Origin: a virus
Lineage: Duplodnaviria; Heunggongvirae; Uroviricota; Caudoviricetes
Length of the DNA: 25,552 bases
Virus record (IMG/VR): IMGVR_UViG_2706794697_000002
Reading direction: 5' to 3' (one strand)
Below, piece after piece: positions 1 to 4,400 of this stretch. The notes below the pieces were generated by a model. The model searched no databases and had not been told where the DNA came from. It saw nothing but the letters and a program-made list of their open reading frames with translations. How positions within the stretch are numbered: position 1 is the stretch's first letter; every line of letters starts with the position of its first letter. Both the position numbers and the translations under genes were made by a program.

Positions 1-83
1 AGGGACAGCTGATAGAAACAGAAGCCACTGGAGCACCTCAAAAACACCATCATACACTAAATCAGTAAGTTGGCAGCATCACC
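1..83 (-). mobile_element. insA: IS1 terminal segment (left inverted repeat plus first 9 codons of insA); the element continues beyond the window start
   Basis: Reverse complement of 1..83 reads GGTGATGCTGCCAACTTACTGAT...GTGGCTTCTGTTTCTATCAGCTGTCCCT, which matches the IS1 IRL and the InsA start MASVSISCP as I recall them. The IS1 boundary is at 83/84. Confidence 0.85.
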
Positions 84-402
84 AGCCTTCTTGAGGCTAC
101 CACCTGTTTTCAGGTGTCATTCAGACGTGATTTGCCCCAGATTGGGAAAGCACGCTTTTTTCTCAGCTATCGTCCTCTTATTTTGCCGTTACATTTCTTT
201 TTGCATTCTAATGATTAATTTACAATAATAATATCGGTAATTATTGAGTAATAATAAATTAATTATTGCAAATGTAATTTAATTCCATCTTCGCGTTATA
301 TTCCAATCTTTAATCTCCGCATGGAACAAGTTGCATGCGTGACTATATTAAGACGACTTATAACCACCAAAACATTTGCTTTGCAAGCAAAAACAGTGAC
401 CA

Positions 403-431
403 TTGACTCTAAGAAAATTCCGATCTATTGT
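403..431 (+). promoter_or_regulatory. Putative sigma70-like promoter (-35 TTGACT at 403..408, 17-nt spacer, -10 TATTGT at 426..431)
   Basis: Hexamers and spacing read directly from the sequence. The region is AT-rich, so a chance match is quite possible. Confidence 0.25.
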
Positions 432-465
432 TAGGGTCATCAAAGTTACTTAACAGTATTCCGAA

Positions 466-567
466 ATGAAAATACAAAGCAAGCTAATTGTCTTATTAAA
501 CATTATTATTGCATTTATATTATTTGAGCTTTTAGCTCAAAAATTTGGTTTGAGTACATTATTTTAA
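466..567 (+). CDS. Hypothetical 33-aa hydrophobic peptide (MKIQSKLIVLLNIIIAFILFELLAQKFGLSTLF)
   Basis: Translated by hand; below the ORF-track size cutoff. Basic N-terminus followed by a single predicted transmembrane stretch. No clear Shine-Dalgarno, and AT-rich DNA readily produces such ORFs by chance. Confidence 0.2.
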   Translation: MKIQSKLIVLLNIIIAFILFELLAQKFGLSTLF

Positions 568-717
568 AGCAAGATAAACAATATCGGGCACTCTAGTTTT
601 TATAATTAACAATTAAACGTCCATAAAATGTTATTTACTTTTCTTCGCTATTGTCATATCTTAATATAGTGGCTTACGCCACTCTACTTTCATCACATTT
701 TGTACGTTTATGTACTC

Positions 718-749
718 GCCATGAAGCTCTTTCATGGCGATTTTTTATT
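718..749 (+). terminator. Putative intrinsic terminator (stem GCCATGA / TCATGGC, 7-nt loop, then TTTTTTATT)
   Basis: Hairpin 718..738 followed by a T-run at 741..749 on the plus strand. The orientation fits a rightward transcript from the AT-rich island and not the end of tfa. Confidence 0.45.
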
Positions 750-832
750 CTTAATCCAAGAACATACTCCCTACCTATAGCAAAATCACTTTTTTAACAA
801 AAGAATAACGTATTTAGGTAATCATTACGAAT

Positions 833-1414
833 TTACCCTATAGGTGCTACTGGCCATTCAATATCCGGTGCAGTTGATGTATCAACACGGTTCAGCAACA
901 CCCGATACTTTTTCCAAGCTTCCAGCAACAAGGTTTCTTTCTCCGTTGCGATCTCCAGATCCACAGCATCCTGAAGCGGCGCTATATGCTCACTGGCTAC
1001 CTGCATCAGGCTGTTTTTTGTTTCTTCCGCCTCCCGGATCCGGAACAGTTTTTCTGCTTCCGTATCCTTCACCCAGGCTGTGCCGTTCCACTTCTGAAAC
1101 TCCCCTTCCGGGGATAACCAGGTGACATTTTCCGGTAATGAGCCGAGTTCAGAAATAAATAACGCGTCGCCGGAAGCCACGTCATAAACCGTTTTACCCC
1201 GATGATCTTCAACGAGATGCCACGATGACTCATCACTGTTGAAAACAGCCACGAAACCAGCCGGAATATCTGGCGGTGCAATATCGGTACTGTTTGCAGG
1301 CAGACCTGTATGAGGCGGAATATATGCGTCACCTTCACCAATAAATTCATTAGTTCCGGCCAGCAGGTTATAAATTTTTATGGTCCGTGCTTGTTCACTC
1401 ATTCTGAATGCCAT
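833..1414 (-). CDS. tfa: Tail fibre assembly protein Tfa (193 aa)
   Basis: ORF translation [38 protein letters not shown]... is near-identical to lambda Tfa as recalled. Its start overlaps the stf stop (TAATG). Confidence 0.93.
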
Positions 1415-4400
1415 TATGCGAGCCTCACAATATAGTTAAATGCGATGTTTTTGACGGTGTTTTCCGCGTTACCAGCAGCGTTAACGGTGATGGTGTGTCC
1501 ATGTGAACCAATCGCAACAGAGTGCGTATGAGCACCAATACCGACAGTATGCGCGTGTGCACCCGCAGATGCTGCTGTGCCGGACAGTGAGTGTGTATGG
1601 TTTCCTTCTGAAGATGATTTACCTACCCATTGGGAGGTGCCACTGGTTAATGAGCCACTGATACCAACCTGATTAGTCCCGCTAACTTGAGTACTCCCTG
1701 CCGGAAACATTCCAGTAGGTTGACTCCCGCTATTCGTTCTGGGCCCAGTCTGACTATGTTGGTGGGCCCCAGCTGAACTTGTAGAGCCGCTCAGACTGTG
1801 CGTATGCGCCCCGGTGTTATTCGTGGATTTAGTGCCGTAATCAAACGACGATGTGGTTTTCGTCCCCAAATCCGTACTGGATGCGCTGGCGCTGTGGGTG
1901 TGCGATTTAATGCCATCCTGTTCCTGAGACAATACGGCACGACCACTGGCGGGCTTGCCCTTAATCGTCCAGCCACGCATATCAGGGATCACGCCTGACG
2001 GATAAGCGGCTGCAAGTTTCGGGTAAGCAGATTTGTCAAAAGTCTGCCCCTGCATCAGGGCATAACCAGACGGAACGGTATCTGATGGCCACGGGATTGG
2101 TGCACCGACTGGATAAAACTCTGCAGGAGGATGAGCCGAGGTGTAAAGCTGCGCCCACGGCGACCAGTTTGCGTCGGTCGTATCCCGTCGTGAACGAATA
2201 AATGCCGGAGCATGAGCACCGCTTGTACCACTCCAGCCGATGAGTAACTCACCTTCGCCAACGGCTGTCATCCCTTTCAGGTGAATGATATTTCCATACG
2301 CTGTTGGATATCCGTTGTTATACACCTCGTATAACTCAAGACCTGCTGCCCCCTGCGTATTGTCTGTCAGCGCGGCTACCCGACCTTTTGAAGCCAGATT
2401 AACTGATGATACTGCTGTTCCACCTGACGGTAGCGCCCCGATCTCTGATGCCGTTGGCTTATTTCTGGAGTTATAGTCCCTTCGCCAGCCAGGTGAATAA
2501 TCTGTTCCGTGATTAATATAGGTAAACTGGGCGTTGGTTGTTCCGCCACCGCTGGATGTGGTCGGAGTGGTAATGCGGATCGTCATCGCTGACTTTATCC
2601 CCATTACTTCAATGACAGCTCCGGCGAGATGAATATTACCGCAGCCAGTATCAGTAATGATTTTATTATTGCCATAAGACCAGGAACCCTTGCACATCCA
2701 GTATGGATGGTTAAATGCTCCCTGAGAATCCAGCCACTCGATAAACTGTGCAGTCGTCCAGTTTCCTGTTGTTGTGCTTACTGACCCACCGAAGGCACGG
2801 CAGGCACCAATATTTTTCGTAAAGGTGTCTTTGCCAGGGATATCCGCACCGTTCTGATCTTTCTGCAGACGTTTCTCAGCATTGTCATTGGCTGCTTTTA
2901 CTGCCTTTGGCGTTGCCGCCAGCGTTTCAGACGTGCTGTTGGTCGCGCTGCTTAGCTGGATTATCCCTTTCTGTGCTGTCGTTGCATCCTGTGCGGTGTA
3001 TTTCCCGTTAGCCAGGTCATACGCGGCCTTAACGGCTTTTGGTGTTGCCGCCAGTGACTCGGAAGTGCTGTTAGTCGCACTACTGAGCTGTACTATCCCC
3101 TTTTTCGTCGTGCTCGCATCCTCAAGCGCCACGGCGGATGCAATATCCTCTGCCCGTTTTGCCGCTGTCTCAGCGCGCGTTGCTGCAGATTCCGCCGTAC
3201 TTTTGCTCTGAGCTGCTGCCGTCGCACTACCAGCAGCCTCTGTCGCCTTCGNNNNNNNNNNNNNNNNNNNNNNNNNNNNNNNNNNNNNNNNNNNNNNNNN
3301 NNNNNNNNNNNNNNNNNNNNNNNNNNNNNNNNNNNNNNNNNNNNNNNNNNNNNNNNNNNNNNNNNNNNNNNNNNNNNNNNNNNNNNNNNNNNNNNNNNNN
3401 NNNNNNNNNNNNNNNNNNNNNNNNNNNNNNNNNNNNNNNNNNNNNNNNNNNNNNNNNNNNNNNNNNNNNNNNNNNNNNNNNNNNNNNNNNNNNNNNNNNN
3501 NNNNNNNNNNNNNNNNNNNNATGCGGCGCTTTCTGCCGATTTTCCGGCGGCGGTGGCACTGGCTGAGGCCTGCCCGGCACTTGTTGACGCGGCGCTGGCA
3601 GACGACGCAGCCGCTGTTTTTGAGCCTGCCGCAGCTGAGGCACTCTGTCCCGCTGCCGTTTCAGAAGACCTGGCGTTCGTCTCGGACGTTTTGGCCGCCT
3701 TCGCAGAATTTGCAGCCGCCGTCGCCGAGGAAGCTGCGCTACTGGCGCTTGATGATGCGTTCGTTTCTGATGATTTTGCCGCCTCTTTTGAAGCCGACGC
3801 ATCCCGGGCTGAGGTGGCAGCTTCTGACGCTTTCGTGGTCGCGGTGGATGCAGAAGTGGCTGCTGATTGTTGTGACGCTGCCGCATTCGTTTCTAACGTT
3901 TTCGCCGCACCGGCACTGGTAGCCGCCGCGCTTTTTGAGGACTCTGCAGCGGCAGCACTTTTTGAGGCTTCAGTGGCCTTTGTTGATGCCGTTCCTGCGC
4001 TGGAAGACGCTGACTGAGCCGACGAAGCGGCCTGTCCGGCTGACGTGCTGGCTGCACGTGCTGAATCTGCAGCATCAGTCGCATGGGTTGCCGCCTCACG
4101 GGCTGATGTGCTGGCATCGCTGGCTGATTTCTTCGCGGCTGCCGTGTTCTGTGCCACCGCGGACGCGTTACGCGCCACCTCTTCCACCATCAGCTCAAAA
4201 CGGCGCAGTGCCTCCGGACGGGCATCATCCTCCGTCATGGCACCGAGAAAATCATTCAGCGTACCGGGTCGGGAATCTTCATACACGGTGATGGTCCCGG
4301 CATGTGACGGCGGGAATCCTTCCACCAACAGAATAACGCTGTACTGACCGTACTCAACGTCCATGCTGTAACGCCCGGCTTCATCCGGATTTTCTGAGGC

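Follow-up and report, generated by a model that had tools for sequence, protein, structure and literature searches.

A diverged YncL homologue in a probable phage moron beside the tail fibre assembly gene tfa

The window analysed here is a DNA stretch of 25,552 nucleotides (nt) from a virus (Duplodnaviria; Heunggongvirae; Uroviricota; Caudoviricetes; IMG/VR record IMGVR_UViG_2706794697_000002), and the element in question is a 33-codon open reading frame (ORF), here called ORF33, which lies with a predicted promoter and a predicted terminator in the AT-rich segment 84-832, between the end of an insertion sequence, IS1, and the tail fibre assembly gene tfa. As the initial annotation of the window had stated, no ORF of at least 60 amino acids (aa) exists within 84-832, and the segment is far more AT-rich than its surroundings, with 31.5% GC where tfa/stf have 51.6% and the window as a whole 54.5%. 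The GC content falls to 21.6% in ORF33 (466-567), compared with 52-55% in the phage genes, and the promoter-ORF-terminator unit of about 500 bp lies at 22-32%. The same annotation called the segment non-coding, a label which proved wrong in view of a 33-codon ORF that is under purifying selection, and treated it as one island, when 84-832 is a mosaic of unrelated pieces. Its proposal that a promoter, a small hydrophobic ORF and a terminator stand in line as one unit is upheld by the conservation of the ORF and its homology to the small protein YncL. Three diverged lineages, namely the window type, the Sx181 type and the MP1 type, which differ by up to 21%, were compared; the promoter-like site, the ORF and the terminator were found at the coordinates first reported and at homologous positions in all three, and only the fourth listed feature, a palindrome, did not stand. 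The features of the segment and its borders are collected in Table 1.

Conservation of ORF33 at the amino-acid level in other genomes, a check put forward in the initial annotation, was observed throughout a collection of 57 copies, drawn from annotated genomes and phages, from 48 IMG/VR viral contigs and from the window itself, while approximately 820 complete Escherichia coli genomes carry the unit. The frame is intact and free of frameshifts in 57 of 57, with identical start, stop and length, heavily decayed prophages included, and the copies resolve into seven nucleotide alleles and four protein alleles. When IMG/VR contigs were found through the conserved block 3' of the gene alone, 47 of 48 carried the ORF start, and the remaining contig ends inside the ORF. 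The window and Sx181 alleles differ by 11 synonymous and 7 non-synonymous changes, giving a synonymous divergence (dS) of about 1.0, a non-synonymous divergence (dN) of 0.09 and a dN/dS of 0.09 (binomial p 1.5e-4), and the MP1 lineage adds five synonymous changes and one non-synonymous change. The ratio in frame 0 is low in the comparisons made (0.09, 0.04 and 0.06), while the other two frames of the same sequences give 0.37 and 6.1, at least 0.37 wherever computable. A pooled hand count across the alleles yields about 18 synonymous against 9 non-synonymous changes, where 20% synonymous would be expected (binomial p 1.7e-7). Insertions and deletions (indels) were observed at 368, 397, 566-570, 597 and 616 among 36 distinct sequences and none within 398-565, so that the geometry from promoter to stop codon is preserved. 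Taken as a whole, the substitution pattern argues that ORF33 is a real gene, conserved as a protein and under purifying selection.

The predicted product possesses the basic N-terminus (K2, K6) and the single hydrophobic helix that had been read from the sequence at the outset, the helix spanning approximately residues 7-25 and holding Asn12, followed by the C-terminal residues K-F-G-L-S-T-L-F. It matches the NCBIfam model NF000537 (YncL) over residues 1-28, at 25.0 bits (E 1.3e-5) for the window allele and 23.5 bits (E 3.7e-5) for the Sx181 allele. The YncL of E. coli K-12 (b4598, a stress response membrane protein), MNVSSRTVVLINFFAAVGLFTLISMRFGWFI, aligns with ORF33 without gaps at about 35% identity, and the Smith-Waterman score of the pair is 60, against 20.2 +/- 4.1 for composition-matched shuffles, none of 20,000 of which reach 60. 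A loose codon pattern of the shared motif, run on 185,579 species-representative genomes, returned 29 loci, all of them chromosomal yncL, in Escherichia, Shigella, Citrobacter, Intestinirhabdus, Superficieibacter and one unclassified Enterobacteriaceae genome, and their products are tightly conserved and all 31 aa long. A hidden Markov model (HMM) built from 18 distinct chromosomal YncL sequences scores ORF33 at 22.2 bits, the best of 5,000 shuffles reaching 14.8; the pattern behind this set of orthologues had itself been derived from both proteins, and the NCBIfam model is independent of it. Both proteins are single-helix peptides of 31-33 aa, ungapped over residues 1-28, with M1, S5, K/R6, V9, L10, N12, A16, L19-F20, L22 and K/R26-F27-G28 in common. 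Measured against the motif that is invariant in 29 of 29 chromosomal orthologues, ..TV.(L/M)IN.FAA..LF.L.S.(R/K)FGWF, ORF33 has kept N12, A16, L19-F20, L22 and K26-F27-G28 and has lost T7, F14-A15, S24 and W29-F30. The two also differ in length (33 aa against the uniform 31 aa of the orthologues) and in locus, as K-12 yncL lies between patD and ortT, whereas ORF33 is prophage-borne, always beside a prophage tfa, and has 22% GC. These comparisons indicate that ORF33 is a significant homologue of YncL, a diverged phage-borne paralogue, and neither an equivalog nor an orthologue.

Other databases held little on this protein. ORF33 had no match in Pfam at E <= 10 and no meaningful match in PHROGs or PADLOC, and phmmer against 1.84 billion representative proteins returned only ORF33 itself and a frameshifted allele, the query being too short to reach YncL at library-wide E-values. 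A tblastn search of phages and plasmids with ORF33 recovered not even the four phage records in which the exact peptide is encoded, a negative that is uninformative, probably because low-complexity filtering masked so hydrophobic a query. The exact peptide is predicted just twice, without a name, among about 15 billion database proteins, its sequence was found in no paper of the searchable full-text literature, and no gene call at 466-567 appears among the matches listed, where every row gives the annotation under the match as "none". The only coding sequences (CDSs) annotated by depositors in the region are a 37-aa ORF in phage PhiR70_1 and a 55-aa ORF in phage ev099, the latter being the counterpart of window 51-218. 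The 37-aa ORF (321..434, plus strand) is frameshifted by indels in the Sx181 type and is probably spurious, and the ORFs 651..797 and 700..780 were likewise rejected as coding, both spanning a T run of variable length. A hairpin inside ORF33 (523-541) was rejected as a structure, with two A-C mismatches in the Sx181 type.

The promoter candidate shown in Table 1 was confirmed in place, although the match alone is within what chance gives. It is the sole promoter-like site found at a homologous position in all three lineages, with its spacing of 17 nt retained; the representatives of the three lineages share an identical -35 hexamer, a change at 407 being seen in 1 of 36 distinct sequences, and the -10 hexamer reads TATTGT or TATCGT. 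The hairpin and T run reported as a terminator were confirmed and are kept in all lineages; this is the only terminator-like site in each lineage, the count of such sites lies above that of shuffles, and termination is predicted for the plus strand only, as no T run follows the stem on the reverse strand. The messenger RNA (mRNA) predicted from a start near 438 to an end near 746 would measure about 310 nt, and the region around the AUG of ORF33 within it is predicted to be unstructured (-0.4 kcal/mol). The feature described at first as a perfect 17-bp palindrome turned out to be an interrupted inverted repeat, of which dinucleotide shuffles of the region contain 0.76 on average, and both PhiR70_1 (AAGCAAA to AAACAAA) and the Sx181-type allele carry it in a broken, uncompensated form, so it is best read as a chance feature. 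The conserved block upstream of it is possibly a regulatory region; promoters of sigma-E, sigma-54 and sigma-32 style were sought by eye in 320-350 and rejected, their spacings or key bases being unfit.

Table 1. Positions of the AT-rich unit, its predicted parts and its neighbours in the window.
Feature	Position	Strand	Remarks
IS1, terminal 83 bp	1..83	.	Left boundary, outside the unit; IS1A-family transposase annotation in near-identical genomes
Prophage-end (attachment-site arm) relic	84..172	.	Unrelated to the small gene
Conserved upstream block	285..365	.	86% identity between window and Sx181 types; adjoining 366-401 (36 bp), 53%
Interrupted inverted repeat TTTGCTT-tgc-AAGCAAA	375..391	.	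7-bp arms, 3-nt spacer; chance
Sigma-70-type promoter candidate TTGACT-17-TATTGT	403..431	+	Same position in Sx181 type (TTGACT-17-TATCGT) and MP1 type
ORF33, 33-codon gene, YncL-like small membrane protein (predicted) MKIQSKLIVLLNIIIAFILFELLAQKFGLSTLF	466..567	+	Intact frame, dN/dS, YncL homology
Hairpin 1, AGUGGC-UUAC-GCCACU	668..683	+	Predicted fold
U/C-rich single-stranded linker CUCUACUUUCAUCACAUUUU, then 4-bp hairpin 702-715	684..715	+	Predicted fold
Intrinsic terminator, 11-pair stem 716-740 (5 G-C pairs), then T run TTTTTTATT	716..749	+	All lineages
tfa (tail fibre assembly gene)	833..1414	-	Convergent with the small gene; right boundary; stf next, also minus strand

Three sequenced temperate phages carry the unit, namely mEp332, PhiR70_1 and ev099 (entered under two accessions), which amounts to 4 of 50,697 phage records, and it was also detected in 812-827 of 5,426 complete E. 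coli genomes (about 15%, roughly one in seven). ORF33 was found in some E. coli only, and a synonymous-degenerate DNA pattern of its first 13 codons recovered no copy in the 185,579 species-representative genomes, that of E. coli included. Lambda-like prophages integrated at the lambda attB, next to bio/ybhB, carry near-identical DNA in their b region, in the gene order J, lom, stf, tfa, AT-rich segment, IS1, AraC-family regulator gene and IS2 remnants. Positions 255-832 behave as a separate travelling block, always directly downstream of tfa. Its identity to the window is about 96% in the ydfJ-site (Qin) prophages; among the copies beside sitABCD it is 94% in strain MP1 and 79% in Sx181 and GF54. 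The adjacency to tfa was therefore seen in prophages at three chromosomal sites, lambda attB, ydfJ/Qin and sitABCD, and this, together with the three phages, bears out the view of the initial annotation that the segment is accessory b-region cargo. Other prophage ends carry different DNA after the tail-fibre genes, such as those of ST131 and DEC5A. The distribution points to a unit that is mobile among phages. Fragments of the 3' end of tfa bracket the unit on both sides in the sitABCD-adjacent prophages (L005, 4892-4991 and 5596-5754; L009, 2504-2603 and 3208-3366), and therefore movement between phages via recombination within tfa is suggested. The ydfJ-site allele (L004) is 97-100% window-like from 366 onward and in 285-365 shares many of the Sx181-type differences, suggesting a recombination breakpoint near 365, inside the unit.

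The junction at 83/84 is uninterrupted in the phages without IS1 (PhiR70_1, ev099 and mEp332), where the AT-rich DNA runs on leftward for approximately 750 bp, up to the regulator gene. That gene (L002 1017-1760 and L001 4366-5109, both minus strand) encodes an AraC-family regulator that is YdeO/GadX-like (NCBIfam YdeO, E 2e-43, with a score far under that model's equivalog cutoff); the regulator gene and the small gene are divergent, about 1.1 kb apart in the IS1-less phages, and the window lineage has IS1 inserted between the two. Window 84-168 stands alone at the ends of quite different prophages, at the serU/zinT site (ST131) and at the uspF/Rac site (O55:H7), and PhiR70_1 carries 340 bp of host yodB-serU DNA, ending inside serU, about 110 bp to the left of its counterpart of 84-172. 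This host piece comprises the yodB-serU intergenic region and the last 62 nt of tRNA-Ser(CGA) serU, is 97% identical to K-12, and lies at 2067-2406 of L002 (PhiR70_1) and also in ev099, mEp332 and the lambda-attB prophages, with phage-side sequence after it that runs on into 84-172; its counterpart in the genome of the window would fall just past the left-edge IS1. The solitary occurrence at prophage ends and the host serU DNA nearby would therefore mark 84-172 as what remains of the phage side of an old attachment-site junction; together with the 340-bp host piece it looks like the fossil junction of a serU-integrating ancestor, captured by imprecise excision. On the other side of the unit, a run of 268 N at 3253-3520, either a masked stretch or an assembly gap, breaks stf and renders ORF calls across it unreliable. 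The Rfam family IS009, a candidate small RNA (sRNA) from an early intergenic screen, matches 873-1071 on the minus strand at 218 bits, wholly within the tfa CDS, and this family probably models conserved tfa coding DNA and not an RNA gene.

We consider it likely that the interval of about 255-760 represents a phage moron, a self-contained AT-rich accessory unit with a diverged YncL homologue, placed past tfa and pointing at it. A moron in the sense of Juhala and Hendrix is equipped with a promoter and a terminator of its own and deviates in GC content (PMC3594210). A promoter and a terminator are both predicted here, at positions conserved in the three lineages, the base composition deviates as described above for the island and the ORF, and the presence among related phages and E. 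coli genomes is patchy. ORF33 may be transcribed from its own promoter in the repressed prophage or lysogen, and the one-directional terminator would keep the transcript from running antisense into tfa. The peptide would then insert into the inner membrane and act there. For YncL itself, production was reported to cause sublethal membrane depolarisation, nucleoid condensation and greater sensitivity to pore-forming peptides, with heat shock and minimal medium as the inducing conditions of the gene (PMC12542507), while its cleavage is RseP-dependent in vivo although purified RseP did not cleave it in vitro (PMC10470546). Like produced YncL, ORF33 might mildly lower the membrane potential and so shift envelope and stress physiology, and it has possibly acquired a phage-specific role, such as the exclusion of other phages, along the path of HK97 gp15. 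ORF33 is accordingly proposed, by analogy, as a membrane-acting peptide of lysogenic conversion.

Several observations weigh against this interpretation. The function given to ORF33 is inferred from overproduction data on a YncL that is only about 35% identical, and the score of 25 bits lies below the curated equivalog cutoff of NF000537, 35 bits, which would also explain the absence of the YncL name from the output of NCBI's PGAP pipeline. The conserved C-terminal G-W-F of YncL, with its Trp-Phe, is replaced in ORF33 by G-L-S-T-L-F. Promoter-like sites number 6 in the region, compared with 4.8 +/- 2.3 in shuffles, and the match at 403-431 is on its own no better than chance. The AUG of ORF33 is preceded by no Shine-Dalgarno sequence (..uauuccgaaAUG), whereas GGUGG stands upstream of 26 of the 29 chromosomal yncL genes and other G-rich sequences in the remaining three; an unstructured AUG region can permit initiation without a Shine-Dalgarno sequence. 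In E. coli, H-NS is expected to bind DNA this rich in AT and to silence it, so that expression of ORF33 from the prophage is uncertain. One metagenome contig holds a frameshifted allele, P0018, to be explained either by rare inactivation or by an error in sequencing; its predicted protein has 43 aa, the first 26 residues being those of ORF33 before the frameshift. Moreover, the diverged lineages are three only, all from E. coli, and the selection tests rest on few substitutions.

Whether the segment holds anything functional at all was also considered, as AT-rich spacer or decayed DNA at a junction of phage modules could display such features by chance. Promoter-like matches as common as in shuffles, an inverted repeat that arose by chance, a mosaic of unrelated pieces and the lack of a pipeline gene call at 466-567 among the matches listed are all compatible with such a spacer, but it would have to accommodate frame-specific purifying selection on ORF33, a frame intact in every copy down to the heavily decayed prophages, the homology to YncL, and a terminator that is conserved and in excess of shuffles. 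This explanation is contradicted by the selection and homology tests, and we hold it to be very improbable. The initial annotation had likened the unit to a type I toxin-like membrane-peptide gene or an sRNA unit; in a type I toxin-antitoxin (TA) system the 33-aa peptide would be a depolarising toxin whose mRNA is held in check by an antisense or divergent RNA from 285-365 or 665-745. A small hydrophobic peptide without a Shine-Dalgarno sequence, between long conserved untranslated flanks, fits such a system, as do the membrane depolarisation and the reduced viability that follow YncL production (PMC12542507), and a conserved TATAGT occurs on the minus strand at 347-342. ORF33 nevertheless matches nothing in PADLOC or in Pfam (E <= 10), which would cover such type I toxin families as Pfam contains, no minus-strand promoter is conserved in position, the window candidate at 657..628 being absent from both other lineages, and no direct repeat ties a possible divergent RNA to the 5' untranslated region (UTR). 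Between the AUG region (466-478) and 699-711, pairs can form at 11 of 13 positions, one of them G-U (77% Watson-Crick), and both segments are largely invariant, which resembles the fold-back control of hok mRNA; this long-range pairing, however, lies outside the predicted minimum-energy fold, and a second complementarity of 25 nt (329-353/659-683) was rejected as a structure, as the Sx181 type has lost it without compensation. The sole homologue, YncL, is moreover a chromosomal stress-induced protein, and K-12 yncL has no annotated antitoxin gene beside it. The toxin label is thus unsupported and a TA system here is improbable; the outline given in the initial annotation, a cargo unit for a small membrane peptide, appears right, and a YncL-like moron seems the better name than a type I toxin, which was not demonstrated.

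The block downstream of ORF33 raises the further question of a regulatory sRNA as the main product, in which 668-746 would be freed from the 3' UTR or transcribed alone and act in trans in the manner of Hfq-type sRNAs, the ORF being secondary in a dual-function locus. This block (80 nt) is 92.6% identical between lineages, with flanks at 66% and 69%, although the synonymous sites of ORF33 are saturated (dS about 1), and within it 684-715 is nearly invariant over the three lineages, only 696 and 715 varying in more than one sequence. In the predicted fold (z = -7.3), a hairpin at the 5' end is followed by 18 nt of U/C-rich single strand, and a small hairpin then precedes the terminator. This is the textbook shape of an Hfq-type sRNA, and the three changes seen in hairpin 1 are compatible with the stem, C673U giving G-U, A681G giving U-G and C677U lying in the loop. 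A minus-strand ORF of 24 codons (661..735) was rejected as coding, with about 4-5 non-synonymous against 3 synonymous changes in a hand tally of variable positions, and in the absence of a synonymous excess the constraint on the block would therefore act on nucleotides and not on a protein. Against an independent sRNA stand the lack of any match in 84-832 to Rfam 15 at E <= 1 (the sole match in 1-3000 is IS009, inside tfa), the lack of a conserved promoter directly upstream, where an RNA begun from the best -10-like hexamer would have its 5' end within hairpin 1, and variation too scarce to show covariation. The block was not found without ORF33 in the 48 IMG/VR contigs, one of which ends inside the ORF, and the natural deletion variant NCTC9064 drops hairpin 1 and retains ORF33 and the terminator. 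The high identity could equally come from a recent recombination tract or from a "linker" at the module junction beside tfa. The block may possibly be a 3' UTR-derived sRNA, an mRNA-stabilising structure or such a recombination linker; an sRNA as the main product of the locus is unlikely. A wider proposal builds on the moron and seems possible, if doubtful, namely that the locus has a dual function, with its 3' end freed as an Hfq-type sRNA regulating host genes, and/or that the peptide was repurposed, as gp15 was from YebO, for superinfection exclusion or abortive infection. Were the sRNA or the exclusion peptide true, this would give the YncL family its first biological role and reveal a new small-protein gene of defence or conversion in about 15% of E. 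coli.

Small membrane proteins are routinely missed by annotation. ORF33 is intact in all copies gathered yet unnamed, and it ties a poorly understood host small protein to phage accessory cargo. It becomes a candidate for a part in lysogenic conversion, in stress tolerance or in the exclusion of phages. In practice the gain is modest, comprising one gene for annotation and one testable candidate for small-protein and prophage biology, with no new principle; an sRNA confirmed in the 3' block, or phage exclusion confirmed for the peptide, would make the unit more interesting.

Among known systems, the type I toxins Hok, Ldr, TisB, Ibs, ShoB, ZorO and DinQ resemble ORF33 as small hydrophobic single-helix peptides. 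Type I toxins of E. coli can depolarise the membrane, and some are prophage-borne, such as hokD and ralR in the cryptic prophages of K-12; unlike them, the ORF33 region showed neither a cognate antisense RNA nor a conserved antisense promoter. The lysogenic-conversion genes lom, cor and bor of lambdoid phages share with the ORF33 unit a similar position by the tail-fibre genes and products targeted to the envelope, lom lying two genes away in relatives of the window, but their products are outer-membrane proteins or lipoproteins of 100-200 aa unrelated to ORF33 in sequence. The closest parallel drawn here is gp15 of phage HK97, a moron-encoded inner-membrane protein that is a diverged copy of the host YebO and blocks superinfection (PMC3594210). 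The two are unrelated in sequence, exclusion is shown for gp15 and the role of ORF33 is by analogy, and gp15 is part of the tail operon, flanked by the chaperone and tape-measure genes, whereas the ORF33 unit follows tfa and is convergent with it. Both are nonetheless accessory units in the tail region of lambdoid phages, with deviant GC and their own promoter and terminator (here predicted), and both encode a small inner-membrane protein (here likewise predicted) that is a diverged copy of a small protein of the host.

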